From the NCBI GenBank assembly GCA_963818475.1, contig CAWFSF010000006.1, forward strand, positions 576,001 through 640,000: a stretch of DNA of 64,000 bases, in the 5' to 3' direction. The stretch is from Nitrospirota bacterium. Its GTDB lineage: Bacteria; Nitrospirota; UBA9217. Shown here one piece after another: positions 4,026 through 55,855 of this stretch. The stretch's first letter is position 1. Every line of letters starts with the position of its first letter. Made by a program: the position numbers and the translations under genes. The notes below the pieces were generated by a model. It ran no database searches. It was given only the letters and a program-made list of their open reading frames with translations, and had not been told where the DNA came from.

Positions 4026-4125
4026 CACGCACTTTCATTTACAAATGATCACCATTACTAGAAGCATACCTGTCTGCTGCGAAAAGAAATCGGGCGAATC
4101 GTTTTATTATTGCTGAAAGGATCGA

Positions 4126-7100
4126 ATGACTTTGAGCGTACTTCACATAATCGGGCGTTCCCTGCGAAGTAAAAGACCAGGTACTACGATCATCATCGGT
4201 CTACTTTGTTCGCTGTTGTTCCTCTCCTCCCTGTCCTATGCTCTTATCGATCAAACCCTTTTCGGTCCCAAGCGCTACGATCGTCTCAAGGGCAAACCCA
4301 CGGTTTACACCGACACCTTCAAAGGCTGCAAGAACGGTCAGGCCGTCATCCGCATAACGAACGGCGACAGCAAGGACACGAGGATCACGGCGGCTGAGAT
4401 ATCCGTCAATAACCACCTTATTGCATGGGACAAGGATTTCAAGAAGCAAACCCCTTACTTCGAGAGAGTCGTTACCCTCGGGGACATCAATACTCTTACC
4501 GTAAAACTTAAAAGCGGCCGACACGAAGGATTCGATAAGCAGAACAACAATCATAAAAGCGACCTTAAAAAAGCATCCGCTTCCCGGGGCCATGAAAAAG
4601 TAGATGACCATGATCATCAGAGCGCTTCTTTCCTGATCATCGAGGTTCTCGGCAGGGGCTGCGGCGGAACTTCCGACAGCATTGCTCCGATCATATCGCA
4701 CCCTCAGCCCGCGGACGGAACGCTTCTGAACGGTACCGTTCCAGCCATTTCCGTAGAATACGCTGATGACCCGAACGGTTCGGGAATCGATATCGCCTCG
4801 GCCCGGCTCGCGATCGACAACGGAGATGTGACCGCGTCATCAGTAGTCACGCTCACGGGCATCAGTTACACGCCCTCGTCCAACCTGCCCGAAGGATTCC
4901 ATACGGCGACCGTCACCGTGTCGGACCTGTCGAAGAATCCCGCGAGCCTGACCTGGCACTTCACGACTGACACCGTGGCACCCGTTGCCACGATCACTTC
5001 CCATAAGAACAACCAGTACCTCAACACCCCGACGATCAGCATTTCCGGCAGCGTAGATGATCCCACCGCAACCGTGACCGTGAACAACACGAATGCCTCG
5101 GTCTCGGGAAACACATTCACGCTGTCTAATCTTGCATTGTCCGAAGGACAGAACACGATCACGGCAGTGGCCAAAGACACTGCGGGCAACAGCGGCAAGG
5201 ACAGCATCACGATCAATCTCGATAGCATTGCACCCGCCCCCCCGGTAATAACCCAGCCTGGTACTCCCACGAACGGCGGAAGCATTACCCTTAACGGTGC
5301 TGCCGAAGCCCTGTCGATTGTCAAGATCTACGCCGGGCAAGGCGGTGCTGCTCTTGTCGGAACGGTAGCAGCCGATGCCCAGGGAATGTTCACCCTGAGT
5401 AGCGTCACCCTCGCCGAGGGCGACAATGCTTTTATTGCCACGGCAACGGATGCAACAGGGAATACCGGCAACCCCTCCACGCAGGTCTCGGTCATGCTCG
5501 ACACCGCGGTCCCGATCGTAACCATAACAGCGCCCCAGGCCGATGCCTGGTTCAAGACGCCGGCCGTAACGGTCACGGGCACGGTCAATGAAACTGTTAC
5601 AACGATCACGGTTAACGGGATGCCTGCAACGATCACGGGAGCCGGCTTCAGCCTCGCCGGGGTCCAGCTCGCGGAAGGGCAGAACACCATCGCCGTCGTT
5701 GCAACCGACCTTGCCAATAACCCCGGCGCGGGCAGCGTTCCGGTAATGCTCGACACCATTGCTCCGGTAATTACCATCACGGCGCCGGTAAATGGTTCCT
5801 ACGTAAACACGCCTAAGATCACGGTCGCGGGCAGCATCATTGAACTCAATCCCCTGGAAGTCCGGGTCAATGGTACCCAGATCCCAATTCCGAACGGAGA
5901 TTTCAGCCTTCCGGACATTGCGCTTGCAGAAGGGTTGAACACTATCACCGTTAGCGCAAAGGACAAGGCCGGGAACGAGTCAACGACGTCGGTCACCCTT
6001 ACCCTCGACACCATCGTGCCCCAGATCACGATATCCTCTCCTGCACCGGGGTTGCTCACCCGTACCGCGCAGATCGCGGTCTCCGGTACGGTAAGCGAGG
6101 CCGGCACGGAGGTCACGGTAAACACCACCGCGGCGCTCGTGAGCGGCCAGACGTATAGTGTATTGTATACGCTCAGCGAGGAGCAGAACTCCCTTGTCGC
6201 AAGCGCGACAGACCGCGCCGGGAACACCGGCACAGCAAGCATCACCGTAACGCTCGACAGCACGCCGCCGTCGCCGCCGGTCATCACACCCCTTGCCACG
6301 CCTTCACCCACGCCGATCGTCGTGGTGAACGGCACGTCCGAGCCCGCTTCCACGGTGCACATATACATGACAACGGGCCAGACCACGGCCGTTCTTGCCG
6401 GCACGGTTACTGCAGACGCACAAGGGAGCTTTAGCCTCGCAGACGTAACGCTTGCCGAAGGGATCACCACCTTTACCGCAACTGCCACGGACTCCTTGGG
6501 CAACACCAGCGACACGTCTGCCCCGGTCTCCGTCGAAAAAGACACAACTCCCCCGGTCATCACGGTCGCGAGCCCGTCCAACAATTCCTACACGAGCATC
6601 GCGATAGTCCCGGTCAATGGTTCTCTGGACGACGCAACAGCGAAGCTCATGATCAAGGGGGCAGAGGTCCCGCTCGATGGCATGAACTTCGAGACAACCG
6701 TGACGATTACCGAAGGACTGAACAGTATTTTGTTTACTGCCGAAGATCCGTCGGCGAACACGTCAAGCAAAACACTATTCATTACCCTCGACACCGTGGT
6801 CCCCGCAGTTACGATTACGTCGCCGTTGAACAACGCCCTCGTAACTTCTTCGCAGGTGTCTGTTGGCGGAACGGTGAACGAAGCCGTCACTTCCGTGAGT
6901 GTCAACGGGACCAGTGCGCTGGTTTCGGGCTCGAGCTACAGCCTCTCCACCTACACCCTTTCTGAAGGACAAAACACGATCACGGTGGAGGCGGTCGACC
7001 GGGCAGGGAACAAGGGAACCGCGAGCGTGAACGTTACGCTCGACAGCATTGTCCCGACGGTGAGTCTCTCTGCCCCGGCCCAGGCCGCGGCAGGAGCTAA

Positions 7101-10100
7101 CGTCACGCTCTCGCTGGGCGCGTCGGACGCAGGCGGCCTTAAACTCGCGGAAGTGACCGTGAACAGCGCCTCGCTCTGGTCGTACACGCTGAACTCCGAA
7201 TTCAACACATCGAACTCGATTTCTTTCACTCTCTCCCCGGACCTTGCATCAGGCAGCGTGGTGAACCTTCAGGCACGCGCATACGATACAGCCGGGAACA
7301 TCGGCACGACGACTGCCCAGATACAGGTCAATCAGGGGCCGACCGGACCTGGATACATCCAGGGCGAGGTGTACGACGACAGTAAGGGCTTACGACTTTC
7401 AGGGGCAAAGATCTCTATTTATCCTGTGAGTTCGGCGACCTCTGCGGCGGAACTATCGACCCAGGATGACGGAGGATATTTCACCGAAGCTCCCAAAGGC
7501 GATTATCTCATCACCCTGTCAAAAGCGGGTTTTACTCCTGTTGAGCGCATCGTGAGCGTAACGCCCGAGAAGAAATCCATTGCAGTAGACGCGAGACTCA
7601 CACCGGTGAATGCTGCGCAGCACCTGGTCGACAGCGCTGGTGGAAAAATATCAGCCGCCCTCACACTGTCCTCTGCGCCAACGAACAGCAGCTCCCTCGA
7701 ACTTACGATAGCGGCCGGCGCGTTCACTAATCAGGTTGACCTGCGGGTGACTGCCGTGAGCAACCAGGGACTCATGGGATTATTGCCGATTGGCTGGTCG
7801 CCGATCGGAGTTATTGACATTCGTTCTTTTACCGCAGAGGGCGCGGAGATCACCGGGGGAACGTCATTTGGAGCGCAGGGAGCGGCATTGAGAGTGCCGA
7901 CAGTCTCAGGGATAACCCTCGCGCCGTCTTCAGCGATCACGTTCGTTATATATGACATATCAACGCATCAGTGGATCGTGCAGGCTTCAGGCACGGCAAG
8001 CGCGGACGGGTTGTTCATCAGCGCCCCGATCGGATCAACCGGCCAGTATGCATTGGTCTTGCCGGACTCAAACGCCGCTGCAATCCCGGGTTCTCCGCTT
8101 TCACCGCTCAGTTCCACATCCAGTACTCTGAGCTCGACGCCTACGGGAACAGGCAGTGTTGTTCCTGCCGCAGCGCCGCCATCCATCGGTCTCAAGGCAA
8201 TGGGTGAACTGGTTTTATCGCCTGACGCGTCAGCCGGCACGCCTGACGCTTATCTCACCTCCGGCATGATCGTGAACGCCACGGTGACCGAGCGCTTCGA
8301 CCTGTTCTCCGGCGATGCCGTGGCGCCCTCTGATTACGTGCAGGACCTTGTTCTGTACAGACAGCCGTGCATTACGAATTTCAATCCGAATTCCGAATTC
8401 AGCATTCCGAATTCCAGCGATGTGGGTTCCACGTTCCCCGTAACCCCTTCGCGCGAATACACCATCGTGGACCTGCTGATGGGCAAAGTCGGCATCTCCG
8501 TCACGCTGCCCGAGCCCGACGCGAGCGGCACGCTTGTCGGTGTTGACGGCGGCCGCATCCTCGACGCGGACGGGAACGTTATCGCGGTCCCGGCAGGTGC
8601 GCTCGCCCAGACCGTGCCGATCCAGACCAAGACCGTGCCTGCGTCGACGCTGACCGGGATCGTGGGACCGGATTTCAATCTCCTCCGGGCCATTGATGTG
8701 AACCTGACGGGCCAGACGCTCGCTTCCTCAGCAGAGCTTTCGATCCCCCTGCCCGTCGGCTTCAACGCAAACCTGCCGGTCGTCATTGCCAAGGCCATCG
8801 ACGTACGCGGCGCGCAGAAATTGAAGCTCGTGGCCATTGCGCGGTTATCAGGGTCCCTGATAACCTCCGGTTTAAACGGTGTAAGCGGTTTAAACGGAAT
8901 CTTGACCTCCGGTCAATACTTCTTCCTTCAGGCCAAAGCTCCCCTCGGGTTCGTGAAGGGGACCGTGACCGCGCTCTCGGGAGCGCCCGCCTCATCAGCT
9001 CTCGCAACCATCAGCACCTGCTCGCTTGTCGACCTGACCAATGCGACAGGAAGTTATCTGGTCGCTTCCACGGTAGCTCCATTCAATGTCGCGGCAACGG
9101 ACATTTACAAGAACGACGCGGGTACCGGGGGTGGCGTGATCCTCACGGCGAACCAAACCATTACCGTTGACATTTCGATCATGGTTACGCCGCCGAACGT
9201 GACATCACTCACACCCGGCGACAACGCCGTCAATGTAGAGCCGAATGCAGCCATCGTGATCACCTTCAGCGAGCCCGTGGACAAGGCAACTTTTACAGCT
9301 GCGAATATCACATTGAAAGACAGTGCGGGCACCGTGGTTGACGGAATATTCTCCGTGAACCCCGAAAGCACTGTCGTAACTCTCTATCCCTCGACCCTCC
9401 TCACGTCCGAGGCGCGGTATACGCTGGCCGTCTCGCGGAACATCAAAGACCTTCAGGGCTATACCATGACCGGGGATGTGAACGCCGCCTTCACTACCAG
9501 GGACACCACCCCGCCGCCCATGCCAGCAGCAGGCAGCATCACCGCGACGTTCCCCGATGCCGATGGTTACGTGACGATCACGGCGACCCAGGGTTCTGCC
9601 GAGGTGAGCGGCACGGTGTTGATCATCAATGACAATACCGGAGAGATCGTTGCCATAACACCGAATTCAAATGGTTCCTTTACCGGGAAGATCATGGCCC
9701 AGCTGGGAGACGACATCAAGCTCGTGTCCATGGACGCTGCCGGAAACCAGACCCTCATCTCCTATATAGCAATGAAGAGTCCTGACGGCAAATACCTTGT
9801 TTCCGCAAAAGGCGGCATCGTCGAAGGCGAGGGCGGCACCAAACTCATCATTCCCGAAGGGGCGCTCGACGGCCCCACGGTCATCAAGATCACGCCGGTG
9901 ACCGAGGACCAGCTTCCGCAGCCCGTACCCGAGAACGCCGGGTTCCTGGCTGCGGTAAACATCGACGCCGGAGGAGCAACGTTCAAGAAACCGGTGAAGT
10001 TGTCCGTTCCCGCGCCAACGAGGATCGCGGATATCCCGGCAGGCAGTATGCCTTTTGTGAGCCAGCCCTCTGAGCTGGTGAATGCCGACGGCACGATAGA

Positions 10101-13100
10101 GAAGGTCTACGTGGTCCACGACAGCGCCAAGGTGATCGACGGCAGGCTCACCACGGCCAGTCCGCCTTTTTACGGCATTGGTCTCGGCGGATATTTTGTT
10201 TTCGAATTCCCCTATTTTACGGTCGGCATCGTGGATGGCTATACGTACCGCGATATGGACGGTGTCTATGGTTACAAACCGGAGAATGGGGATCTCCCGG
10301 TCAAGAACGCTGTGATCCGGACGCCTGCTGCCTGGCACCATATTACCTACTCTCGGGAAAACGGCTTCTATGCGGCCTTTGCCGAGATCATCGGCAATGT
10401 GCCGGGCATGCCCGACCTGGAATTCAAGTTGACGGCCATCCATCCGTTAACGATGAAGCGCGTGGACATAACGTCTATTCTCAATGCTGAAAATAATATT
10501 GTCCACCTGCAGAACATCAAACTCGCCGGTCAGAGCGATATGCCGCCGGATACAGTGCCTCCGGCCATCAGTTTCAATCTGCAGGTAGCGCCGAACAGCG
10601 CACAGGACGCGAGCCATCAGAATGCCCGGTTCATGGCAGGCACCATATCGATCGGCACGAACCTTTTGACCTCGATCAGCATTATTGATCGGGACGTCGT
10701 GTCACCGACCTTGACGATCACCTGCAGCGGTGCGTGCACCCAGTCTCAGTATTCAGCAGTGCCGACCGTGACCGCGAGCACGGTGTACACGCCTGTCAGC
10801 CAGGAGAACATGGTCGCAACAACGAAGTTTACTTATGCGCCTAACTTCGACTCCGCTATAAGCTCGAACGGAACATTCTTCACCCCCTCCGGAGCGGCCA
10901 CGTACACGCTTACTCTCGAAGCGTCCGATTCTGCAGGCAATCACAGCAGCAGAAGCCTCACCGTCCGCGCTGTTGACCCGGCATCCGTACCTACCGACGG
11001 AGTCAATGGCCGGCCCATCGTGGATGAAATCATCCCGACGGACAATTCGGGAGGCGTCAATGTCGATGCCAAGGTCGAGATCACCTTCAGCGAAATGATG
11101 CAGGAGAGCACCATCAACAACAACACTGTCTCGCTGACCAACCTCGCGACGGGCCTTAGTGAGCCAGTATCGATCGAGTTTGCCGTAGAAGGCAGCCGGA
11201 TGAAGACCATACTGCGGCCTCTGCATCTTTTGAATTTCGATACAACCTATGAAAGTCCTCGTGACACAAGGTGTCCGTGATCTTTTCCCGAATACGTCGC
11301 AGCCGGCAGGCCAGGTTGATGCGAACGGCACTATGGCACTGGATCATGATTATTACGCGGAATTCACGACCAAAGCGCCCCAGGCCTTCGACATCACCCA
11401 ATTGCCGGGCGATACCCCCCCATTCACGGGCAGCCGCGACATCGCGCTCTATACTACGACCGTCAACGATTCGGCCACGGGTACGGAAGAAGAGCGCACC
11501 TATGCCTATGTGCTGACCAGCGCCAACGGCTGGAGGGTCGTGGATGTCACCGATCCCACTAATGCCAGGGTTGTTTACAGTAATCCCTGGGGGCAAAACC
11601 AGGTCGGTCTGCGGAATGTGGCCGTAGACGAGGACCTAAAGATCATGGCCATGACCGAGCTCATCCGACAGACTGAGTTCACCGGTATGATCCGGTTCTA
11701 CGATCTCGCTTCCAACCCGGAGGCACCCCCTATCGTCGGCCATGAGTGGCTTGCGGAAGGTTCCAGCGGAGTGCCCGGCAGGATCGCAATGTCCGGGGGT
11801 TATGCCTACATTGCCACCGGCATGGTCGGCATCCAGGTCGTGGACATCAACGCGACCAGGTCGCTAGCCAGCAGGCCTCATGGAGATGCCATCGTGGGCG
11901 GCCTGCCGACTGTGGACCTGGGCTACGGAAGCCCGCTCGACATCGTCATTCATCGGGCCGGCAAGGGGCTCTTGACCACGACCACGGGATATCTGCTGAC
12001 ACTCGATATCAATCCCACGCAGCCGCAGATCCTGAAACCATACAAACCCGCAGGATTCAGCGCCTGGCGCGTGGCCGCAGCCTCTGACTTCGAATACATC
12101 GACGATCAGGGCAACACCCAGACCATGGACCTGGCGATCGTGAACGGCTTCGAGGGAAAGATCAGCACTGTCGATATCACCGACCCCTACAACCCGCAGC
12201 ACTACACGGTCAAGAACGACGCGGGCGTCGACCGCACCGACTTTTACGTCACTGATATCGTCATAAGCAAAAAAACGCGCCTTGCCTATGCCGCAGCAGG
12301 CGCATCCGTCCTCATCTTCGACCTGTCCAACCCCCGCATTCCCCGTCTGCTCGGGACGATCACGAGTGCTCCCACCGGGGGAGGGACGGGCGATACTTTG
12401 CTCGGCTACTCGATGGCTTTGATCGAGAAGGATGGGTGGGTGTATTTGGCAAACAGTGATCGCGGAATGAGATTGTTGAACCTCACCGCTTTGCAGATCG
12501 AGGTAGATCCGAAATACATCATGCTTGACAACACCGGAAAGCCGGACACGACCAAAATCACCTATCGGCTCAGCCCACCGGATTATCAAGCAGCACCGGC
12601 AAAGGTTGTAGTTTACAAGGACGGAGTGGAATACAAGTCCATCCCTACGGCGGATATCGGTGGCGATGCTGCTACATTTGCGCAATCAGGAGAGTTATTC
12701 GACCTGAATAGTACCTATTATGCGCAAGTCGTGGTAAATGCAGGAATGATCGGAGCCAACGGAGAGAAACGAAGCCAAATCATACCGTTCCTCAAGGAAC
12801 CGCCGCTGGTAACGGATTACAACAGAGACAGAAAAATCGACAACGCGGACATGATGCGTGCAGCCAAGCAGGACACGTTTTATTTCTGGACAGGCTATTG
12901 GGGTGCGGCTGTTAATGGAACAAACGATCTGACTAATTATTTCCCTGTTTATCTTAATATTAAAGATTTGCTAAATATATACGATCCGGGAAAATTTACC
13001 TATCAATTGAAGTCAGCAAACCAAAACTTGATGTTTTTATTTACTGACCTGACTCCAAACACATCTGGAAATTACCTAACTGGCAACGCAACTAGCCTTG

Positions 13101-14542
13101 ATCAGGCTACGTCACTTGCTTACGCTTTCACGTACTCAATACCCAATATCGGACTTGTACTGAATAATAATGCGGCAAACCCCTCATTTTTACAACAGAT
13201 CAGGGATAATGGAAAAGGAATCATTTTAGTTAAAGGCACGTCAGCAGGCAATGCCCCTCTTGTTCTTGAAATTATCGACACGCAAACACATGCGCTGGTA
13301 TTTTTCTCGAATTTGAATATTAGCTTGGCGAGTGTTGAACAAATGTTTCGGCAAAAAAATCTTGTCAATCAAGGTGGGGGGCCTCTTCCCAATAGTGATC
13401 CGACTATGGGCGAAAAAGATCGTTTGAGTGAGCCCCTGAATTATCCTGACAAAGAATGCACCGGTGATCCTTCGGGTAACGGTAAGAATTTCGTTTTTGT
13501 TCACGGCTACAATGTCAATCCTCAGGAGGCCAGAGAATGGCATGCTGAAATGTTCAAGCGGCTGTTCTGGTCGGGGTCGAGAGCAAAATTCTGGGGAGTT
13601 ACATGGTATGGGTACGAGTCTCAAGTAGCAGGATATTGTCCAGAATATCATAATAACGTTGTGCATGCATTCGCAACATCTTCAGTGTTGGCGAATTTCC
13701 TGGCGCCTCTACAGGGCGAAATTACCATTGCGGCACATAGTTTGGGAAACGTGGTTGTAAGTTCAGCAATCGATCACGGCGCGAACGTGAAAAACTATTT
13801 TCTACTCAATGCAGCTGTTCCAGTGGAGGCTTTCTATGCAGGAGAGCCTGAATCGTCTGATATGTACCAGTTTGACTGGACAAACAATCCGTATGACCAT
13901 TTCCTTTGGGCAACAGAGTGGCATCGTCTGTTTTATGTGCCAGGAGCGCAGAATTTGGACGAGAGATCCAAACTGACCTGGAGAAATCGGTTTGCAAATG
14001 GAAACTCTGTTAGTTATTTTGATTTCTTTTCTCCCGGCGATGATGTATTAACTAGCATTTTTGCCATTCAAGAGAAAATGAAAGGTTCTACTGGTATCGA
14101 TGGATATAATGGGAGAAATTATGGGGGATGGGGCTTTAATTTCGCTGACTACTACGAAACTTATACAACTGGTGGCGGCGGATTAATGCTCTATGATAAG
14201 GCAAATACTTTAGATCCTGCCATCTTGAAAACGAAACCATTCTTCAAGAAAGACGGGCTAATTGATGCGGTTCTCATTCCAGGTCCGTCAGGCAGTGATG
14301 CTGCAAAAAACAATAGAGATCGTATGCTTGCTGAATCTTTCCCAGCGCTAACTCCAGCGGTCGGAACGAAGGGCGTTGGTTCTTTCCCTCAGAATTATAA
14401 TTTTAACATGCAAACGAATTTTGAGACTAACAATCAGTGGCCTCGATCTGATAATAAATGGCGGCATAGCGACATGAAGAATGTGCCCTATCTTTACGTG
14501 TATACTCTATTTGATAAATTTGTTAAGCTCGGAGGATTGTAG
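4126..14542 (+). CDS. Giant secreted protein (~3,471 aa if joined): about 10 Ig-like repeats, ZU5-like domains, SbsA/Big_5 Ig, LVIVD repeats and a C-terminal alpha/beta-hydrolase; candidate polymorphic toxin; split by a +1 frameshift at 11252-11254
   Basis: Sec signal ending SYA, repeated DTxxPxxTITxP Ig boundaries and LVIVD-type repeats (WRVVDVTDP, GIQVVDI, VLIFDLSNP). The C-terminus has FVFVHGYNV, AHSLG, SPGDDVL and WRHSD. Removing one A from TAT GAAA GTC restores a continuous Ig domain (LNFDTTYEVLVTQGVRDL) across ORFs 4126-11280 and 11249-14542. Confidence 0.85.
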
Positions 14543-14544
14543 CC

Positions 14545-15531
14545 ATGATACGAACCATTCCTTTAACTTTAACGTTCATGCTCATTTTTATTTTAATGAC
14601 AACCACTTCACACGCTAAGACGGAAATGGCAACAGCAGACTCAAAAATAAATTTCAAGATAGTTGATGAAGATGGAATCCCTGTTGAATTGGCCGACGTT
14701 GGAGTTGGATATATAATTTTGTCTTGGGGAATCAATAATAAAACCTTCGATGTAAAAGGTTATTCAGACGCAAATGGTTATTTTACTGCATATGCAAACG
14801 CTAGTGCGAAGATAGGTTTTACAGTTAAGAAAGAGGGTTATTACAGATCTTTTGGTCAATTTGAGTATAAGGAAATTAAGGATGGTAATTGGGAGCCAAG
14901 AAATCCAGAATTAATAGTAGTTTTGAGGAAAATAGTTAACCCTGTGCCGATGTATGCGCGAGATACAACAAAATCAGACTTGGAAATACCTGTAATAGGC
15001 AAGGAAATTGGTTTTGATCTTGTAGAATACGACTGGATAGCACCTTACGGCAAAGGCAAACATGCTGACCTTATCTTTAAAATTGATAAGCGATTTGCGA
15101 ACAATTATGATTTTGACACTACGTTAACAATTACTTTTTTAAATAAATTTGATGGGATTCAGCTTTTTAAAGAGGATCGTAGGAAAAATGGTAGCGAATT
15201 CAAATTACTTCGTACAGCTCCAGAAAAAGGATATCAGCACAAGTTAGTGCGCAATATCAGAAGTTCATCAGATAAACGCATTGAAAATGACTGTAGTGAT
15301 GATGATAATTATTTCTTTCGAATTCGATCAAAAGTGCTAAATGGGAAATTAGTGCAGGCCATGTACGGAAAAATTCAGGGAGGGATATGTCCTGAGCCAA
15401 GAAATTCGAAAAGTGCCCGAATCCTGTTCGCCTATTTTTTAAATCCTGATTATACGCGAAACCTTGAATACCGTCCTGGTGAAAACCTATTTAAAGATTT
15501 GCCAAGCACTGAACGAGTTGGGCTAGAATAG
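14545..15531 (+). CDS. Exported hypothetical protein, candidate cognate immunity protein
   Basis: Starts 2 nt after the hydrolase stop, has a signal peptide ending SHA, a carboxypeptidase-regulatory-like N-terminal sandwich (FKIVDEDGIPVELADV) and the same low GC as the hydrolase domain. The immunity role is inferred from context only. Confidence 0.7.
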   Translation: MIRTIPLTLTFMLIFILMTTTSHAKTEMATADSKINFKIVDEDGIPVELADVGVGYIILSWGINNKTFDVKGYSDANGYFTAYANASAKIGFTVKKEGYYRSFGQFEYKEIKDGNWEPRNPELIVVLRKIVNPVPMYARDTTKSDLEIPVIGKEIGFDLVEYDWIAPYGKGKHADLIFKIDKRFANNYDFDTTLTITFLNKFDGIQLFKEDRRKNGSEFKLLRTAPEKGYQHKLVRNIRSSSDKRIENDCSDDDNYFFRIRSKVLNGKLVQAMYGKIQGGICPEPRNSKSARILFAYFLNPDYTRNLEYRPGENLFKDLPSTERVGLE

Positions 15532-15698
15532 CGAGAGAAGTAATGAGGAACCATAACACTAACTGAGTGACGTTGTAGATTCTATATTGATTCAGACCCA
15601 TAGGGGAAAATTGTAGTTGAAGTTGCGTTGCGGATTTCTATGCGAGCTCGATTCCTTGGTTGGTTGAAAGGGTCAAGGCAATGATAGACAAAGGACCT

Positions 15699-18600
15699 AT
15701 GAAGAAACTTCTTTATATATTGTTAGCAGTGCTCCTGGCCTCAAGCCTTTGTGGCGTTTCGTTCGCCCAGCAGACCCCGACCCCCATCGCGAACATGACC
15801 TTCTCGATCGTGGGTATGACCATGCAGGCGGGTCCGGAGTACCAGGCCGTGCCCAAGGGCATCGCCTCCCAGGTGAACACGGGCTTTGAGAGCAATGGTG
15901 AGCCCATCTCCGCCGAACTTGCCGCCATGCTGCCGAAGGACTTCAAGGTCCAGGCTGAACTCACGGGCCCGACCTATGCTACGCCCCTTACGCTCACGAC
16001 CACGCCGGGCCAGCCTTTCCCCCTTCCGACGTTCCCCATGCTCGGCAAATATTCGCTTTCGAACATCCGGGTCGTGGACGGCGCAGGCAAGGCCTTCATG
16101 GCGGCCACGCCCCAGAGCGTGACCATCGAATCCATCAGCGACCCGCTCATCACAAGCGTGACCACCCGTCCGCTGACGCTCCAGGAGATCCAGGACCGGG
16201 GCGTGGTGGTGGACAGCACCAACTTTACGGTCTACGAGTTCACGGCTGCCATCGGCACCGAGAGCAACCAGCAGCCGCTCAACTTCCCCGTGCTCATCCC
16301 GAACCAGACCCAGGCCCAGAACGTCCAGGACCTCCCTCCGCCCACGGAGATCGGCCTGACTGAGCAGGAAGTGAACGTGCTCCCGCCCAATCTGAATCTG
16401 CCGGAGAACATCAGTATCTCCGGTTTCGTGATGGCCGCGGACGACGAGATGATGGATAAACTGGGAGGGTATGCGCTGCCTCCGATCCCGGGCGTCATCA
16501 TCATTCCGAACAACATCGGTTTTCTGAACCAGTACTTCAGCGCTCTCCTCATGGTGACGAACGGAGCGCCGGGCGCATCGAACCTTGTCGTGAAGGACCT
16601 GAAGGGTACCATTATCATGCCTGTCGGCGAGGACCAGACGCCGGGAACGGATGCAGCTCCCGGAGACGATCCGCTCCGCATGGCAAAGGGCGCGGACGCC
16701 TACTTCCCGAGGACCGCGGCGGTGATCAACGCAGGACCGGACGGCAAGATCGGCACCAGCGATGACACCGGTCTGCTTCGCCCCGCGGAAAGCGGCCAGG
16801 CGGATTTCACGATCGAAGGTCGCAGGGAAGGTACGCATAAGATCGATTTCAATATATCCGCGACCCTGGAGGGTCTTCCTATCGGGCCGATCACAATCAC
16901 GGGCAAGGCGACCGGCGCGGTCCTCGTCCGCAACCCGGACTTCAGCATCACTCTGGGACACCCCGCAACGGTGCGGGCAGGCGAGGAGTACGATCTTTTC
17001 ATCACCATCACCAATACGTCAAAGTCCATCGCGAACCTGGTGTCCACGCACATGGACCCTCGCGCTCTTTCGGGCGCCGTGATGGTTGCGGGCGAGGACC
17101 CGGACAAGCGGATCGATACGATCCTGCCCGGCTCGTCGGCAACGGTCAAGTACCGGCTCCTGTCGCAGCGCACGGGCAAAGTGACAGCCACGGCTTTTGT
17201 GGCTGACCCCAATGTGACCGGCAGGTTCGTGCTCCGCGTGGGTGTGGGAGAACTGGGCATCCCGCTTTCGCCGGATTCCCTGATCATCCCCTATACGGGC
17301 AGTTTGCCGCAGAACATCGTGGATGCGGCAGTGGGGCTCCTGGGCCAGGCATGGAGCGTTGCAACGGCGCCGACCGGCGCGCTTCCCTCCGATGTGCTGC
17401 CCATTAGCAGGCAGACCATCGTTTCCCGGGCGAACGATCTGTCCGAGGCGGGCCTCCGGATCCTCTACGGCGAGCAGGCGGTGAAGGCTGTGGAAGATCT
17501 GGCCTTCGATTTCATCGGCTCCGATAACGCCAATGTCGGTTTAGACAGTCTCAGAAGGAGATCGACCCAGGGCCAAAGCCTGAATGCGGCCATAGCAGGC
17601 GTGTTACAGTCAGAGGTCCAGTCTGTCGGGGCAATGGTGTTCCAGTCCGGTTTTGCGGATCTGATGACCTACCGGCCCGGCCATCTGTCGGTGATCACGA
17701 CCGAGGCGCCGGTCTTTGTGCAGGTGACCGAAGCAGGAGGAAAACGGGTCGGCGCGCTGGGGACCGGTGACCTCTACCGGGAAATATCCTATGCCGATCA
17801 ATTGACCTTGACCGAAGGTACGAACGGCCAGGGGCAGGGGACAAGAAGCACCTTGTCGCTGATAACAAAACTGGGGTCCGCAAGCTACCGGCTCGATGTC
17901 AAGGCTGCGGCTGATGCTTCCTTTGATATTGGTATTGTCGTACCGGGTGCGTCCACACTCCGGCAGGTTCGTTTCAGTAATCTATCACTTGCCGCGGAAA
18001 GCAATGCCTGGGTGGAACTCCTGCCGGGTACGGATACGGAGTATGTCCTGAATATCGACGTAAACGGTGACGGTGTTGCTGACCAGTCCGTTGTTTCCTC
18101 GATCTCGACCATTTTGGACCCGGGACCGCGGGTCGTTGCAGCCACCCAGATGACCCCGCTCGTTGGACCGGGAGGGGACAAGCACGGCCGGAACGTGGCA
18201 GTGCTCTTCTCGGAGCGCGTGAACAAGCTTGCTGCGGAGGACCTTGCAAACTATGCCGTGGAGGAGAATGCCGCCAGGCTCGTCAAGCTTCAGCCCAGCG
18301 GCAGGATGGCATTCGTTCTTCTTCGCGACGGCATCGGGCCCTTCTTCGGAAGTGCGGGTTCTGATGGGAAGTTCTACGGCAGGGCGATCACGGTATCGGG
18401 CCTGACCGACCGCCTTGGAAAGGCGATGGATGCTCCAGAGACCAGACCCATCGTGATCACGGCCATTGGACCTGCGGCGGTCGTATCGGGAACAGTGCGC
18501 ACTGCCCAGGGAACGCCCATTTCAGACGCCAGGATCCGGCTGCTCCAGCCGGTCTGGGTCGAACGTTATTTTGTGCGGGAGATCGAGTACCTTATTTTCA

Positions 18601-21600
18601 GCGAAAAACCGGTGAATGCCGATGGCACCTACCGTTTCGAATATGTTTTCAGGAATGACGATCCCGCCGGACCCTTCATGATCGAGGCGGTGAACGCGGC
18701 AACGAACGAAGCGGGCCAGATCACGGCAGCGGTCCAGGCGCATGGTCAGCGGCTTTCTCTCGATATTTTCATGAAGGCCAAGGGAAATGTGACCGGCGCA
18801 GTGCTTGACGAAAGCGGCAATGCGGTCGCCGGCGCCACGGTCCAGCTGGACACGCTGAACGACAGCCGGCAGTATTTCACCACGACCGACGCCACCGGCT
18901 CATTCTCGTTCTTGAATGTCCGGGTAGGCGCGTTCCGGCTAAAAGCGGTGAGCGTCGCCCTGTATGCCGAAGGGTTGATCATGGGCACGCTGTCCGAAGA
19001 CGGCGGCAATACTGTCCAGAACATAACGATCTACAAAGTTGCCGGTATTGCAAAGGGCGACGTGGCAGGCAAAGTGCTCGGCACGGACGGCAACCCCCGC
19101 TCCGGGGTGGTCGTCATTGTGCGAAGCGGTGAGCGCTATCAGAACTGGATGCGGAGCGGTCCTGACGGGAGCTTCAGCTTCACGGGTGTGACAGCCGGCA
19201 ATCTTACTCTGGATGCGCGGGACGATGCCACCGGTGAAACCGCCCGGGTGAGCGGGACCCTGGTTGAGAACACGACCGCAGTGTTCAACGTGCTCCTGAA
19301 AGGTATTGGCGCGTTCGAATGCCGGGTCATCCGTGAGGACGGGCTCTCGCTTGAGGGTTTTACCGTTATCGCGGAAGTGGGCTATACCAAGCAGGCCGCG
19401 CTCACAGATGCCAGCGGCATAGCCAGGTTCCAAAATATGCCGGTTGGCGACATCCGGGCGTCTCTCCCCGATCCTCGTAATCCCTCCGCGTCACCATTGG
19501 CTCAGGGCACGACGGTGCTCCAGGCGGCGGATGAGACAGCGTTCATAACGCTGTTCATTCCCTTTAAGGCAATGGCAACGGGAGGTATCCAGGGGAGCGT
19601 TTACCGGAGGACTGGCGAGATCTGGCCGAACGCAGAGGTGCGGCTTGTTACCGATCTTATGAGTCTCAAGTATAAACCCTACCGCTCAGATGCTCAGGGC
19701 CGCTTTGTGATCCCTGATCCGGACCCGACAAAGAACGACATTCTGCCGCTGGGCACCTATTATCTGATCGCTCGAGATGGAGCGGAGATCGCCAATGCCC
19801 ACGTTTCCCTCTGGTACGACGGACAGGTCAAGACGCAGGACCTCAGCGCCGCAGGCATGGGCTCCGTCAAGGGAACTATTTACGACCAAACGGGCGTGGA
19901 CCAGAACAACAACCCGGTGCTGATGCCGGCAGGCGCCGATGTGCTGCTCTTTTCCGTGAAGCCCTCTCTCGTGGGGTGGCTCCAGTTCGACTCAAGCACG
20001 CCAACAGCGGTCAAGAGCGATCCTCAGACGGGAAAATATTCCATTCCCGGCGTCTATGCAGGCAACGTCTCTGTCAGGGCATCCAATATATTCAAGCCTA
20101 CGCAGGTTCTCGCAAACGGGTCATTGACGCAGAACGGGCAGGCAGTGACGCTCGATCTGACGCTCAAAGACACGTTCGGTTCCATATCAGGCCACGTACT
20201 CCTTCCGGACGGATCGCCCGCTGGGCCGGGTATCGGCGTGACGATTACCTACGGCAATCCACCGGCGACGGTGACCGTCAGGACCGGAGACTCAGGCGAG
20301 TTCCAGTTCAGACCGGTTGTTCCCGCGGGAAGCTACCGCGTGCTTGTGGAAGACCCCATTTCGACCTTGAAGGCACAAACTTACGTTGCTGTTCCCGCTG
20401 GCAAGGACGTTCCCGTGGATATCCGGCTTCTGGGCAGGGGAGCGGTCATCGTGAATGTTGTTGATGCTGCGGGAGCCGTGGTATCTGGAGCAGAGATAAC
20501 GGTGAGCGGTTCCGGGTTCCCGCAGGATACCGCGGCAGGCACGACGGACCAGAGCGGATCGGCGGTGTTCCTCAATCTTACGGAGGGGAGTTATGCCGTT
20601 TCTGCGAAGGACGGCAATAACCTCGGCGGCAGGGCGCAGGGGAGCATCCCGGCAGACAACGCTTCGGTCACCGTGACCGTAACGCTTGCGCCGTCCGGCA
20701 CGGTGATCGGCCGGTTCCTCAAAGCCGACAACGCCACCCTCATTGCCGGAGGCCAGGTTAAGCTCATGAATTCCTCGCGGCAGGTTATCGCCTACAGTTC
20801 CAGTTCGTCCGAACCGGCGAATCCCGGCGTGTTCCGCTTCGAGTACGTGCCTTTGGGAGATTTTATCCTTGAAGGTTTTGATCCGCTTACGGACCGGAAA
20901 GGGATCGGCGGCGCTAGATTGACGTTCAACGGCCAGACCGTATCCGCGGATATCACGGTAACACCGCAGGGCGTGGTCAAGGGCACGGTATTGAACAACG
21001 CAGGCACGTCGCCCGTGGACGGGGCGCTGGTTTCCATCTCGGTAACCGGTGTGAGCACCTGGGCGTATAGCACGGTTACGGCGCCAGACGGCGGCTATCT
21101 GTTCGCCGGCGTTCCTGCCGGTAAGTTCACCATCAGCGTTACTGACCCCGCAACGAACCTCCGCGGCAGCGCCGCAGGAACGATCTCCTCCGAAAACGAG
21201 ATCGCTCGGGCCGATGTCAGGCTTCAGGCGAGCGGCGGCATTCAGGGCACGGTGTATCTGCCCGACGGCGTCACCCCCGCGCAGAACGTGGTCGTTTCCG
21301 TGACGCCGGGTTCGAAGACCGTCCAGACAAACGCGCAGGGATCCTTCGGATTCACCGGCCTTGTCGCGGGCGTTACCTATTCAATAACGGCAAGCGAGTT
21401 GGGAACTCACCGGGTTAGAAGGACGTCCGCTGTCATTACCTATGAAGGAGAAGTCGCCCAAGCGGACGTAACGCTGTACGGAGTAGGAACGGTGGAAGGC
21501 CTTGTTTACGATTCCGACGGCACGACAGTGCTGACGGGAGCAAAAGTGGACCTGCAGGCTTACGGGATCGGCAGCATTACCTCCCTTTCCGTCACCGTAT

Positions 21601-24600
21601 ATACCGATCTGGAAACGGGCCTGTTCCGGTTCTCCGATGTACCAGCCGGCACCTTTACGCTCAGGGCGACCTACCCGAACAAGTCTACGGCAGCATCGGG
21701 CTCCGGATCTGTTGCCGGCGAGGGCTCGGTCGTACCCATGAATCTTACACTTGGGCCTGTGGCAGAGGTCACGGGTAGAGTTCTCAAGGCCGATACTACA
21801 ACACCGGCTGCGGGCGGCGGGGTGCGGCTAACCTGCGGCTACAAGACGTTCAATACCATCATTGATTCCAGCGGATCGTTCCAGTTCTCCTCCATTCCGG
21901 TCCCCTGTACGCTGATGCTCTATATGGTCGACGCGGAAGGTCTGGGCATCGGCTATTATTCCGGATCGCTCTTGGCCACCGACAACGGCAAGACCGTGGA
22001 TATCGGGACCGTCACGCTCGATGACAAGGTGATCTCCGTGCTCGGCGTCAATCCTGACACCGGGGCAGTGGATGTCCCGGTGACCACGCAGACCGTGTCG
22101 ATAACCTTCTCCGAACCTGCCGATCCGGCCACGGTGAACAATTCCACGATCTACGTTCAGAAGGGGAGCACCCGGTACTGGTGGCCGGTCAGTTTGAACG
22201 CCGACCATACGATCGCATCGATCACGCCGCCCGTTCAGGGGCTCGACAGCTTCACGCTCTATACCGTGGTTGTGGCGGCCAGTGTCAAGGACCGTGTTGG
22301 GAGGACGCTGCCGAATCCCTTCAGCAGCACCTTTACGACGAGAGACACCCTGCCGCCCGCCGTACAGTCTGTGTCTCCGGCGAATGGAACCCTTCAGGCA
22401 GCCCTGGACAGCGTGATACGCGTTACCTTCTCCGAGAGCATCGCCCAGAATTCCACCGGCGGCTTCAGTCTTCTGGTGGGCGGAGCTTCCGTTGAGACGC
22501 GAGTCGACCTCGTCCAGGGAAACACCGTCGCGATCCTGACTCCGATAGCAGCTCTCTCACCCAACGCGACCTACATGGTCATGGTCAGTGGTGCAAAGGA
22601 CGCGGTCGGGAATGTGATGGCAGGGACGCATGTGTCGACCTTCGCAACCATAGATACCATCGTTCCGACCGTGACGAACCTCACGGTCACCGGCGATCTG
22701 ATCAAGGGGAACACGATATCCGCGGTTGCTACAGTGGCGGATACCGACATAGCCTTTGTCGATTTCTTCATGGATAATGTGCTTGTTGCAACAGACAGCA
22801 CCGCACCGTACACTCAGAACATAGTCCTTTCCAAGGAAGGCACCGTTTACCTCAGGGCCGTGGCTCAGGACAAGGTCGGCAACCGGGGCTTGTCATACCC
22901 CCAGCCGGCCATGGAACTGACCATTGCCCAGGACCAGGCCCCGGGTGTGTCCATAACCTCGCCCGCGAACAACAGCACGGTCAACACCGGCTCTTCGTTC
23001 AATGTCTCGGTCACGGCAACGGACGATCTCTTTGCCAAGGATATCACACTCACTTCTACAGGCGAGGTCATCGTTACCCAGACGAAGACCCAGAGCACCG
23101 GCAAGACTTTCCCCACGAACTTCAATGTTGCCGTGCCCCAGGGAGCATTGCCCGGAGGGACCATCACCCTCACGGCAGTTGCTAAAGACTCGGCAGGCCA
23201 GGCAAGTCTGCCTGCAACGATCAGCGTAACGGTTCACGACAATCTTGCGCCGGTGGTAAGCATTACGAGCCCTGGCGTTGCCACGAAGTACCTTCCCGGC
23301 GAGACCGGCACCGCAACGGTCGCCGTGAGCGATAATGCAGGAGTTGTTTCGATCTCCTGTACGGTTTCCGGCGCTGGTTCCGGAGGTCAGACGTTCACCA
23401 TCGCCCCGGCGCAGAAAACAACGTCCCAGAACTTCAATTTCACCGTGTCACCGTCAGCTGCGCCCTATGCAGGGATCACCCTCTCCTGCACTGCGGATGA
23501 CGCGAGCGGAAACCACGGTACTGCGAGCCTCGGCATGTCTGTAGCGGACATCGTGCCGCCGGTCGTGGCGACTACATCAATACCGGACAACGCCGTTAAT
23601 ATTCAGGCCCGGCCTGTTGTCGGTATCACGTTCAACGAAACCCTGCTCCCTGCCTCGGTCAACGGTGCTACTGTAAGCCTGAGCCAGGAAGGCGGCGCTA
23701 TGGTAACAGGTATTGTCGGACTTTCTGCGGACCGCAAGACCGTGAGCTTCACGCCGCAGCAGAACCTGATCATGGCAACGACCTATACGCTCACGATCTC
23801 CGCAGAGGTGAAGGACGAGGCAGGCAATGCGCTCGCAGCGGAATATGCCCTGCACTTTACGACAGACGGCACACCGCCGGCCCTGTCAGCTTCTTCCATC
23901 ACGGACAATGCCGTGGACGTGCCGGTTTCGGCCGCCATCACCGTGTCGTTCAACGAGGCCCTTGCCGTCGCAACAGTCAACGCCGGCTCAGTGGGCCTGG
24001 CCCTGAACGACGGGACCGGAGCTGCTGTTCCGGGCACGGTCGGGCTTTCAGCGGACCACAAGACCATCACGTTCACGCCGGGTTCGGACCTGGTCAAGGG
24101 CAAGACGTACCGGTTTACGATCACTTCGTCTGTCACGGATGAGATCGGGAATGCAATGTCAGGCACTATCATCATCCGGTTCACGACAGTCCTTCCGGAC
24201 ACTATGGCCCCGAAGGTCCAGTCCGTGACACCGGCGAATGGAACCCAGGGCGTTTCCGCCGCAACGGCGATCACCGTCAGCTTCGATGAACCCGTGGACC
24301 GGTCCACGGTCACGCAGGACAGCTTCATCCTGTCCTCGGCAACAGGCACCGTGCCGGGCATCATCACCTTCAACCAGAACAACACAGTCGCCACCTTCCG
24401 GCCGGCTGCGCAACTTTCGTTCATCACGAGTTATGCGGTTATGCTCAAGGCAGGGATTGCCGACCTTGTGGGGAATGCCACAACCGTCGACTACCAATCG
24501 AGCTTTATGACCGGCGGGTTCAGCATCACGAGCCCGCGCCAGAATGCCTACGTCATCCAGGGCAGGACCATTGCACTCACTGCTGCAGTGGAAGGGAGTC

Positions 24601-55209: not shown

Positions 55210-55855
55210 GTGAAAGTTAAAGTTGTTACTCGCATTCTGGAAGCAAATGACCGCATTGCAGAAGAGAATCGGAAACGATTCCAGGATGCCGGGGTGTATG
55301 TGGTCAATCTGATGGGTGCGCCAGGAGCCGGCAAGACGACCCTTCTTGAACGGACGATCCAGGCGCTTAAACCGCATCTGAAGATCGGTGTGATCGAAGG
55401 GGACATCGTCGGAAGCGATGATGCCGAACGTATCGGCGCCCTCGGTGTGCCGGTGGTCCAGATCAACACCGGCGGGGCCTGTCACCTCGATGCGAATATG
55501 ATCAGCGAAGTGCTGCCTGATTTTCCGCTCAAGGAACCTGGACCTGTTGATCATTGAGAACGTCGGGAACCTCGTCTGCCCGGCTGAATTCAAGGTCGGC
55601 GAGGACATCAAAATGATGGTCCTGTCGGTCGCCGAAGGCCACGATAAACCGCTCAAGTATCCTCTCATGTTCCGCGAGTCTTCGGCATTGGTCCTGAACA
55701 AGATCGACCTCCTGCCCTACATGAACACGGATATGAACAAGGTCCGGAACGATTCCCTGGCGCTCAATCCACAGTTGAAGATATTCGAGGTCTCGTGCTC
55801 CACCGGCGCTGGCATCGAAGCATGGGCTCAATGGTTGAACGGGCTCAGCTCATAG
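55210..55855 (+). CDS. hypB: Hydrogenase nickel incorporation GTPase (+1 frameshift near 55537)
   Basis: GAPGAGKTT, TGGACHLDA, then IENVGNLVCPAEF, KPLKYP, NKIDL. Confidence 0.93.

Follow-up and report, generated by a model that had tools for sequence, protein, structure and literature searches.

A low-GC lipase-like tip and its exported partner as a probable exchangeable toxin-immunity cassette on a giant Ig-like protein of a Nitrospirota bacterium

A low-GC segment of 3 kb in the window, the whole 64,000-nucleotide stretch of a Nitrospirota contig that was analysed, is probably (at roughly 60%) a horizontally acquired, exchangeable cassette of a Sec-dependent polymorphic toxin-immunity system that is not linked to a type VI secretion system (T6SS). 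The segment encodes the lipase-like C-terminal 550 amino acids, here called the tip, of a roughly 3480-residue Ig-like/LVIVD-propeller protein, Sec-exported by its signal-like N-terminus, together with a small partner gene directly downstream.

A frame change of one base near 11249-11254 makes the gene of the giant carrier show as two open reading frames. The first frame (4126-11280, + strand, 2384 aa) has a signal-like N-terminus, as judged by eye, followed by Ig-like domains in arrays and a single ZU5 match at residues 1891-1962 (Pfam, E 1.2e-4, 22.7 bits where the cut-off is 21). Its other Pfam matches are Glucodextran_B (six), Big_13 (five), Big_5, Big_6 and HYR, and it aligns colinearly with P0135 over 2149 columns (38% identity). 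The two stop-to-stop frames, 4117-11280 and 11234-14542, overlap at 11234-11280 on the + strand; against P0135, the tail of the first frame aligns as far as residue 2238 and the second frame starts aligning at residue 2237. HypF in the same window is likewise broken, into three ORFs. The second frame opens with the end of the stalk (P0001 residues 1-421; 11249-12511, +), an LVIVD-type β-propeller (Pfam LVIVD, E 2.4e-8) of host-like composition, with a GC of 0.587 and a GC3 of 0.729. A secreted multidomain protein of this kind, which joins an export signal at its N-terminus to a stalk of Ig-like, ZU5 and LVIVD modules, has the architecture of polymorphic toxins.

The stalk is joined to the tip by a linker (P0001 residues 422-549; 12512-12895, +), which contains the motifs DYNRDRKID (12815-12841) and FYFW and forms the conserved 5' part of the cassette family. 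In blastp the linker matches 35 of 150 tip-family representatives and the stalk four of them, and the column pattern of DYNRDRKID is conserved in the family alignment A2. Judged from these alignments, the motif belongs to the cassette family, where it is found on unrelated stalks, and not to the resident stalk. Homology to the closest stalk relative stops near residue 421-427 (about 12510-12530), about 100 residues before the motif, and a sharp fall in GC at about 12900-12925, from 16-18 to 7-9 G+C in 30-nt steps, sits 60-85 nt past it. At the same place an acidic loop of about 25-35 residues, kept in relatives, is missing. The earlier note had the module recombined onto a resident stalk just after DYNRDRKID; the differing histories of tip and stalk support the recombination, but the motif is part of the cassette and not the end of the stalk, and stalk homology ends earlier.

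The histories of tip and stalk disagree in several respects. The tip of the window groups with four other Nitrospirota tips (SH-aLRT 97). Two of these four were scanned upstream; one (L002) has a Transglut_core and Big_1 stalk and the other (L003) a weak Big_1 match alone. The colinear giant relatives L011 and L016 sit in a different tip clade, with a support of 100, and none of the 14 best tip relatives matches the stalk. The closest relative of the stalk, P0276, comes from a genome of the same family and is 42% identical over residues 29-420, after which the two proteins diverge. Its C-terminus is unrelated and low in GC (NlpC/P60-like, as a lead only) and is followed by another signal-peptide gene. 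Thus differing tips occur on homologous stalks and the same tip occurs on unrelated stalks, as in polymorphic toxins, and a single phylogeny shared by tip and stalk is not seen.

The tip begins with a β-sandwich (12896-13414, +) that resembles the N-terminal domains of peptidylarginine deiminases (PAD-N-like). In a search with Foldseek, the AF2 model of the tip (pLDDT 89.2, pTM 0.91) matches PAD3 (7dan) in this domain with an E of 1.4e-4 and a probability of 1.00 over about 196-204 columns. The missing acidic loop appears here as a gap relative to both P0135 and the relatives in A2. The sandwich is followed by an α/β-hydrolase domain (13475-14542, +) with HG at 13502-13507, Ser831 at 13739-13741, an acidic residue, 931, at 14039-14041 and His1073 at 14465-14467. 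The motifs from which these residues had been proposed, HGYN (13502-13513), AHSLG (13733-13747), SPGDD (14030-14044) and WRHSD (14459-14473), lie where they were claimed to be, and column counts find Ser831, the acidic residue 931 and His1073 kept in 31 of 31 aligned relatives. With VIA-align, the hydrolase superimposes on the lipase 6nkc_B with a Z of 14.5 (160 aligned, rmsd 2.6), on RavL with 13.2, on Tle3 (8boz_A) with 12.8 and on PlaB with 12.0, and the tip model matches more than 40 further hydrolases besides 6nkc_B at Z of at least 11.5. The fold, the nucleophile elbow and the order nucleophile-acid-His of the triad place the domain in the α/β-hydrolase superfamily, and the identification in the earlier note stands. 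Pfam DUF900 (PF05990) matches at 22.3 bits (cut-off 20.5), over just profile positions 22-113 of 232, and is found at E≤0.01 in 19 of 31 relatives. The A2 profile matches a pancreatic-lipase-related protein at E 0.013, and neither the tip nor any of its 30 relatives has a Pfam match to a Tle family. Since the fold matches are generic for α/β hydrolases, lipid as a candidate substrate is a guess.

The partner gene (P0002; 14545-15531, +) encodes 328 residues. Its ATG at 14545 starts 2 nt after the stop codon of the tip, with GGAGG about 9 nt upstream, and the spacing suggests that it is translationally coupled to the tip gene. The proposed signal peptide is borne out by a hydrophobic, signal-like start, again judged by eye. 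There are 267 homologues at E≤1e-3, all called hypothetical, and no Pfam family or name was found for the partner, these homologues included. Apart from the signal helix, the model of the partner (pLDDT 79) is all-β. Residues 28-131 match transthyretin-like domains with a Z of about 11, and residues 134-308 form a second β-sandwich that matches HmuY/BfrB-like chains with a Z of 8.5. The partner is a candidate immunity protein. Lif-type foldases, which are membrane-anchored, mostly helical chaperones, are also encoded downstream of a lipase; a lipase with a Lif-type foldase was rejected here, the partner model being all-β with transthyretin-like and HmuY-like sandwiches.

The tip family has at least 2379 representative clusters (50% identity, E≤1e-3), and among the matches listed the tip is C-terminal in 150 of 150 family representatives. 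Its stalks, in the 26 proteins scanned, include Transglut_core with Big_1, TSP3, Laminin_G_3, RCC1, cadherin and Glucodextran_B/Big_5. Sixty copies of the partner in genome loci comprise 29 after a full tip, 10 after an internal 5'-truncated fragment, 3 after a tip cut by a contig end, 15 without a tip and 3 with too little upstream sequence, so that a tip or tip fragment precedes the partner in 42 of 57 evaluable copies. Metagenome loci hold 64 copies, with a full tip before 15, an internal fragment before 4, a contig-end-cut tip before 13 and none before 13; 2 are in tandem and 17 are not evaluable. Partner copies that share a locus are 41-71% identical. The tip and partner trees agree with each other (Mantel r of 0.80, a value that none of 2000 permutations reached) and have the same five nearest neighbours. 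Both this congruence and the adjacency in most related loci agree with the view that the tip and the downstream gene are one transferable unit. Nearly all tips belong to one family and the polymorphism is therefore mostly allelic, which speaks against the toxin-immunity reading.

The internal fragments in relatives, of which genome loci hold 10 and metagenome loci 4, are orphan tip fragments like those of polymorphic toxins. The window holds one cassette and no orphan, which counts against a toxin-immunity system, and no orphan is found in its own genome either. No tip match was found in any of five genomes that have a partner without an adjacent tip; all five control genomes matched. Truncated fragments with extra partners, and partner-only genomes, fit a toxin-immunity system on the evidence of gene order, and partner-only genomes could equally point to a function of the partner's own.

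Among known systems, the Sec-type polymorphic toxins with Tox-ABhydrolase tips described by Zhang et al. (2012, PMC3482391) have a signal peptide, ZU5, β-propellers and inactive transglutaminase domains. The window's protein and its relatives resemble these Sec/T2SS-type systems, as far as that description goes, in the signal peptide, the repeat or Ig-like stalk, the propeller, ZU5 and, in relatives, inactive-transglutaminase stalks. They also resemble them in an enzymatic C-terminal tip that varies between homologous stalks, a small adjacent gene and stand-alone cassettes. The likeness is one of description, and the present family differs in the PAD-N-like sandwich ahead of the hydrolase and in that most alleles belong to one family; moreover, Imm66, which accompanies Tox-ABhydrolase3, is given there as mostly α (PMC3482391), whereas the partner here is all-β with a signal peptide. 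Another system that is similar by description is Cinquedea, an archaeal, secreted DUF900-type α/β hydrolase that is a single-gene unit and is reported to be a bactericidal phospholipase (bioRxiv 10.64898/2026.06.10.730825), in whose main text the word 'immunity' does not occur. It shares with the present family a secreted α/β hydrolase with a marginal or clear DUF900 match, and provides a precedent for the killing of bacteria by such hydrolases.

The T6SS Tle/Tli pairs are similar in having an α/β hydrolase with a serine nucleophile, an exported partner directly downstream and protection that is presumed to act in the periplasm. However, the tip is unlike Tle effectors in being fused to a Sec-exported giant protein, and its match to Tle3 (215 residues aligned, 17% identity) is no better than that to many unrelated esterases. 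A search of the window's own genome (91% complete) for the sheath family TssC (PF05943) found no match (a control genome was positive), and delivery is therefore not Tle-like. The likeness to Tle toxins that had been drawn earlier fails in this respect; a T6SS Tle effector, defined by a T6SS together with VgrG, PAAR or Hcp, was rejected on the TssC search and on Pfam, which finds neither VgrG nor PAAR in the window's protein. Domains of a Tle family are likewise missing from the protein's Pfam matches.

In Rhs and CdiA-CT loci, displaced orphan tip-immunity modules occur, a conserved block immediately precedes the part that is exchanged, and the tips have more AT than the core. The present cassette and its relatives share these features, the orphans being 5'-truncated tip fragments that are found downstream of the full gene, each followed by a partner gene of its own. 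They differ in that the exchanged tips, except the one in genome G012, are homologous alleles of a single enzyme family. A CdiA (T5SS) or Rhs toxin was rejected, since no TPS, FHA, Rhs or YD-repeat domain is found among the Pfam matches of either ORF.

A rather unlikely alternative is that the cassette, though mobile, carries a surface-displayed degradative enzyme, the giant protein being an adhesin or matrix protein with an esterase or lipase tip for extracellular lipids or polymers. The partner would then be a dedicated accessory that, for example, inhibits the enzyme during export, helps it to fold or serves as a receptor for anchoring. The stalk has adhesin-like domains, and large ZU5-bearing surface proteins with lipase domains have been proposed to remodel or degrade extracellular polymers instead (PMC3482391). 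The partner family, with a mean column identity of 53% and 37 invariant columns in 22 sequences, is unusually conserved for immunity proteins, which speaks for a functional partner more than for a fast-evolving antidote and against the toxin-immunity reading. No delivery machine is evident from Pfam on the giant protein or from the TssC search of the genome, and partner-only genomes are compatible with an independent role. However, a nutrient enzyme hardly accounts for arrays of non-functional, 5'-truncated tip fragments, each with a divergent partner. The different tip of the stalk relative P0276, followed by its own signal-peptide gene, also argues against it, as does the all-β partner where lipase foldases are helical.

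The composition of the segment bears on its acquisition. Over 9000-19000, a two-breakpoint likelihood fit selects 12684-15725 as the best segment (log-likelihood gain 143), with a GC of 0.407 inside and 0.590 outside; the support range of the left break is 12418-12913 and that of the right break 15719-15752, just inside the next giant gene (in-frame ATG at 15699, or 15681). Sliding-window GC falls from 0.56-0.64 upstream to 0.34-0.47 at about 12750-15750 and returns to 0.64. The drop inside the ORF described in the earlier note is thus real, also by codon position, and its four counts of 36, 18, 22 and 37 G+C per 60 nt at 11941, 12961, 14761 and 15781 are exact. Stalk segments have a GC of 0.58-0.59 and a GC3 of 0.69-0.73, the linker 0.497 and 0.57, the tip (12896-14539) 0.425 and 0.394, and the partner gene 0.363 and 0.299; the mean GC3 of 14 other genes in the window is 0.676. 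The stretch 12851-15650 (2.8 kb) ranks 67th lowest in GC among 9289 windows of the 4.66-Mb genome (mean 0.549, sd 0.045).

Low GC is partly a trait of the cassette family. Among 28 other cassettes the partner is AT-richer than the tip in 27, and in the 21 with enough upstream sequence the tip averages 0.051 below the 3 kb upstream. Cassette GC therefore cannot date the transfer, and it might be supposed that amino-acid make-up or family constraint alone produced it, with vertical inheritance alongside the stalk. This is very improbable, since the GC3 of tip and partner, 0.39 and 0.30 against 0.68 in host genes, means that synonymous sites differ, and since the non-coding intergenic tail (15532-15698, no strand) is also low in GC, at 0.42. 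The tip was not found in the genomes of 40 relatives, tip relatives and stalk relatives disagree, and the stalk relative has another tip. Joining of a low-GC fragment from another organism into the metagenome-assembled contig is the least credible explanation, for although the genome is a bin with 6% contamination and the window contains the frame errors in HypF and the giant gene, the frame is open throughout the left junction, linker, sandwich and hydrolase are colinear with those of family members, the right junction lies in an intergenic region just ahead of an intact signal-peptide start, and the same-family genome repeats the pattern of a stalk followed by a low-GC tip.

The carrier runs from a signal peptide through Ig-like arrays, a ZU5-like module, the LVIVD propeller and the cassette linker to the PAD-N-like sandwich and a Ser-acid-His hydrolase of lipase/esterase type. 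If the segment is an exchangeable toxin-immunity cassette, the fibre would pass the outer membrane and display or release the hydrolase outside the cell, where it may damage envelope lipids or other esters of neighbours. The exported β-sandwich partner would bind and block the hydrolase in the periplasm of the producer and in kin. New alleles would recombine in within the conserved 5' part of the cassette, displacing the old 3' end of the tip together with the old downstream partner gene.

The comparison across genomes suggests a putative, widespread toxin-and-antidote pair used between bacteria. Tentatively, the giant Sec-exported Ig-like/LVIVD fibres of Nitrospirota, Desulfuromonadota-type bacteria and Verrucomicrobiota may constitute a separate system of contact-dependent antagonism that depends on none of T5SS, T6SS and Rhs, with exchangeable lipase-like or NlpC/P60-like tips, each matched by an exported immunity protein from a family that has no name yet. 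Arrays of immunity genes and immunity-only genomes would then record past conflicts in sediments and groundwater, and such arrays could serve as markers of strain conflict. Even if the enzyme proves to be degradative, a mobile enzyme-plus-accessory cassette would still be defined. If the toxin-immunity reading is true, two paired protein families, very large and without a name, would make up a toxin-immunity system in environmental phyla that have been little studied, a lipase-type weapon would be carried by Sec-exported giant surface fibres instead of a T6SS, and a function would be at hand for the many giant Ig-like proteins found in Nitrospirota, Geobacter-like bacteria and Verrucomicrobiota.

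The tip, which is the C-terminal end of a giant protein, is encoded in the assembly by the second of two plus-strand ORFs, 4126-11280 (2384 aa) and 11249-14542 (P0001, 1097 aa), which overlap in different frames. Since P0135, a giant relative of 3433 aa, is colinear with both, the end of the first ORF aligning as far as residue 2238 and the start of the second from residue 2237 on, they are parts of a single gene, about 3480 aa long, whose reading frame shifts by one base near 11249-11254. HypF is also split in this window, into three overlapping ORFs (55795-56880, 56703-57515 and 57490-58425; overall 55795-58425) whose Pfam domains jointly make up one HypF, a pattern that points to assembly indels or to genuine frameshifts. 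Because of this split, an assembly indel is as likely an origin of the frame change in the giant gene as a real mutation. The source is a binned genome with 91% completeness and 6% contamination, probably of Nitrospirota by a single marker, AhcY, which is 95% identical to that of two Nitrospirota MAGs. The N-terminus of the carrier is, by eye, a signal-like hydrophobic segment, and Pfam recognizes Glucodextran_B, Big_13, Big_5, Big_6, HYR, a single ZU5 and an LVIVD propeller in it. The ZU5 match at 9796-10011 (residues 1891-1962 of ORF 4126-11280) scores 22.7 bits, barely over the Pfam cut-off of 21. Since autoproteolysis by ZU5 domains has been described for polymorphic toxins, this position may be a candidate cleavage point of the fibre. 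Directly past the cassette begins a second giant gene (15699-30311, about 4870 aa, with Big_5, CarboxypepD_reg, TSP3_bac and SdrD_B domains) that has its own signal-like N-terminus; a check for a similar tip found neither a GC drop nor a Pfam match in its last 1000 aa.

In a database of 1.84 billion representative proteins the tip (query residues 523-1097) has matches in 2379 clusters at E<=1e-3, of which 844 reach E<=1e-30. The match is C-terminal in all 150 matches listed, in host proteins of 302-3433 aa. The AlphaFold model, for which an alignment with 30 short relatives was used (A2, 31 rows), has a pLDDT of 89.2 and a pTM of 0.91. Over roughly the first 200 residues it is similar to the Ig-like domains at the N-terminus of peptidylarginine deiminases (7dan, E 1.4e-4, probability 1.00), and residues 221-575 are predicted to form an alpha/beta hydrolase that is matched by the lipase 6nkc_B (Z 14.5, 160 aligned, rmsd 2.6), RavL (Z 13.2), Tle3 (8boz_A, Z 12.8) and PlaB (Z 12.0). 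Since such Z scores are ordinary for alpha/beta hydrolases, these matches reveal the fold and not the substrate; the model bears out the alpha/beta hydrolase proposed in the earlier note. The best match of the A2 profile among PDB sequences, pancreatic-lipase-related protein 2, reaches only E 0.013. Pfam matches are marginal (DUF900 in 19 and Abhydrolase_6 in 17 of the 31 members), and NCBIfam gave zero matches for the tip-bearing protein or the partner. Every motif that had been read from the sequence was found at its coordinates. H752-G753, S831, E860, D904, E942 and H1073 are kept in 31/31 rows, and position 931 is acidic in all of them (E in 25, D in 6). With S831, the acidic 931 and H1073 invariant in kind, the Ser/acid/His triad suggested earlier is plausible; E860, past strand 6, is an alternative candidate for the catalytic acid.

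The partner gene, 14545-15531, starts 2 nt past the stop codon of the tip, as had been noticed, and encodes P0002, a protein of 328 aa. GGAGG lies about 9 nt 5' of its start, within the last codons of the tip, and no terminator-like site occurs across 14300-15900. At E<=1e-3 it has 267 homologues, which come from Geobacter-like bacteria, Nitrospirota, Verrucomicrobiota and further groups; where any of the 120 listed has a source name, this is 'hypothetical' or a generic, domain-derived one. P0002 has no Pfam family, its atlas clusters are unnamed, and a search of PDB sequences gave nothing meaningful. The model (pLDDT 79) is all-beta, with a predicted transthyretin-like domain at residues 28-131 (Z about 11) and a probable second sandwich at residues 134-308, for which HmuY/BfrB-like structures are matched (Z 8.5). 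By eye, the signal ends in a lipoprotein-like Cys in about 8 of 22 aligned homologues. The best homologue, P0003, is 83% identical and lies on a 1544-nt contig. A metagenome scan with P0002 as query gave zero loci, and one with the partner alignment (A1) gave 64, the best 52-57% identical. No paralogue of tip or partner was found in the genome itself.

In most loci the partner stands behind a tip or a tip fragment. The 49 genome loci yield 60 partner copies whose alignment spans 150 residues or more (L046-L049, with shorter matches only, were left out). Twenty-nine of these 60 directly follow a full-length tip, 10 follow an internal, 5'-truncated tip fragment and three a tip cut by the contig end; 15 have no tip upstream and three have too little upstream sequence. 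At least four of the 15 tip-less copies lie within 400 nt behind another partner copy, and three are beside housekeeping genes. In an independent metagenome set (64 loci, 64 copies), 15 copies follow a full tip, 13 a tip truncated by the end of its contig or locus and four an internal fragment, 13 have no tip upstream, two stand in tandem behind another partner copy and 17 are not evaluable. Partner copies at the same locus are divergent alleles, 41-71% identical (28% for one remote pair), and the identity between tip fragments and the main tips is 30-89%. In five of five genomes with a partner and no adjacent tip, taken as the assemblies stand, the A2 profile found no tip; it matched in 5/5 control genomes at E<=1e-188. 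For 29 pairs the tree of the tip agrees with that of the partner (Mantel r 0.80, a value that none of 2000 permutations reached), and the five nearest neighbours of the window are identical in both. Since linked genes are expected to agree, this congruence shows one unit of inheritance, not binding.

Several loci have their own distinctive features. At L002 an IS200-like transposase (Y1_Tnp, 11096-12046) separates the main cassette from a displaced tip fragment and a second partner gene. In a Planctomycetota bin (L044, 6482-10654), the C-terminus of an ORF of 1390 aa, itself unmatched in Pfam, includes a partner-like domain (query residues 125-320); this may be a fused form of the partner. A bin labelled Woesearchaeota archaeon (L031) has a full tip and partner; the tip closest to it comes from a Verrucomicrobia bin (support 99), and either the contig is mis-binned or the cassette was transferred. 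Distant hydrolase ORFs at L021 (3597-4136) and L034 (1011-4502), with DUF900 and, in one, a sub-threshold Tle3-domain match, precede partner homologues that share only 24-26% identity with the query, which suggests that the pair reaches into remote subfamilies.

The cassette coincides with a segment of low GC. The spot counts of G+C in the earlier note (36, 18, 22 and 37) proved exact on recount, and sliding GC falls from 0.56-0.64 to 0.34-0.47 across about 12750-15750 before returning to 0.64. A two-breakpoint likelihood fit places the segment at 12684-15725 (GC 0.407 inside and 0.590 outside, log-likelihood gain 143), with a loose left break (12418-12913) and a sharp right one (15719-15752). 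The signal sits at synonymous sites: GC3 is 0.69-0.73 in the stalk, 0.57 at 12512-12895, 0.39 in the tip and 0.30 in the partner gene, and 14 other genes of the window average 0.68. When the 4.66-Mb genome is cut into 9289 windows of 2.8 kb, the stretch 12851-15650 is the 67th lowest in GC; the lowest such windows (0.35-0.37), at C6:640001-644800 just past the window, C2:732501-737300 and C6:234001-237800, are further compositional islands. The GC of tip (0.425) and partner (0.363) is nearly that of the most similar cassette, L003 from a low-GC Nitrospirota bin (0.42 and 0.381). Tip GC averages 0.051 below the 3 kb upstream in the 21 of 28 other cassettes with enough upstream sequence, and partner GC is below tip GC in 27 of the 28, so that low GC is partly a family trait.

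The histories of tip and stalk differ in the comparison that the earlier note had proposed: the nearest tip relatives are without a stalk of the window's type, and the colinear giants fall in a different tip clade. In the tip tree the window groups with four Nitrospirota tips, L002, L003, L004 and L007 (SH-aLRT 97), none of which has a propeller-stalk match by tblastn. Of the two whose upstream parts were scanned, L002 has a Transglut_core and Big_1 stalk and L003 a weak Big_1 match only. The two loci with the colinear giant stalk, L011 and L016, lie in a separate clade with support 100. Of 150 tip-family representatives, four match the stalk (residues 1-421) by blastp, 35 the linker (422-549) and all 150 the tip, with no stalk match in the 14 best tip relatives. 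The tip is absent from all 40 relatives' genomes examined. In one same-family genome (G012), a stalk homologue, P0276, is 42% identical along residues 29-420; past the shared stalk it ends in about 730 aa of unrelated sequence, where GC also falls, from 0.57-0.59 to 0.36-0.49. This alternative tip has a motif with a Cys and, at L142 (contig C91, 5148-9851, minus strand), is followed by a 398-aa signal-peptide fn3 protein. Two more contigs of that genome (L143 and L144) bear variants of the alternative tip and end within it. The alternative tip has no Pfam and no PDB sequence match; an atlas comparison (score 0.94, 176 shared features) gives NlpC/P60 or CHAP as a lead only.

The junction had been placed just past the DYNRDRKID motif (12815-12841), by recombination onto a resident stalk. 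Homology to the P0276 stalk stops earlier, near residue 421-427 (about 12510-12530), where GC begins to sag, and since DYNRDRKID and the following FYFW are kept in cassette-family members on unrelated stalks, both belong to the cassette. GC falls sharply at about 12900-12925, and there relatives, P0135 included, have an acidic loop, about 25-35 residues long, that is missing from the window's protein. The start of P0122, the best tip match, was dropped as a breakpoint marker because its 1839-nt contig simply ends near the GC break. The simplest account is a two-layer history, in which the stalk would already have carried a tip of the same family and a later exchange within the conserved 5' part would have swapped about 12900 to about 15720 for a low-GC allele and its partner. 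The pattern may also stem from one acquisition event that began at about 12520 and brought in DNA of uneven composition.

We consider a toxin-immunity cassette the most likely identity of the pair, with a probability of about 0.6. Zhang et al. (2012; PMC3482391) describe a Sec-dependent class of polymorphic toxin systems that is alike in its signal peptide, long stalk, and beta-propeller and ZU5 modules, in the inactive transglutaminase, found here in relatives, and in its exchangeable C-terminal enzymes, including Tox-ABhydrolase families, with an adjacent partner and stand-alone cassettes. Tle-Tli pairs are alike in combining a serine hydrolase with an exported partner. A preprint (10.64898/2026.06.10.730825) reports a bactericidal, secreted phospholipase of the DUF900 type, which shows that enzymes of this sort are able to kill bacteria. 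The partner family has a mean column identity of 53% and 37 invariant columns, conservation that is unusual for immunity proteins and therefore weighs against the toxin-immunity reading. That the tip is a surface enzyme of degradative function and the partner its accessory is possible but distinctly less probable; a degradative role is raised in PMC3482391 for ZU5-bearing surface proteins with lipase domains. Explanations by composition only or by a chimera take what probability remains, and a T6SS effector is rejected because the 91%-complete genome has no TssC match. Literature searches found no description of the pair; one may still be in print, and the Additional files of PMC3482391 might list members. 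The kind of system is already known; its tip and partner families appear to be undescribed, since they have no Pfam or NCBIfam model, bear hypothetical or generic names and were met in no literature description, and the tip-partner pair is readily testable.
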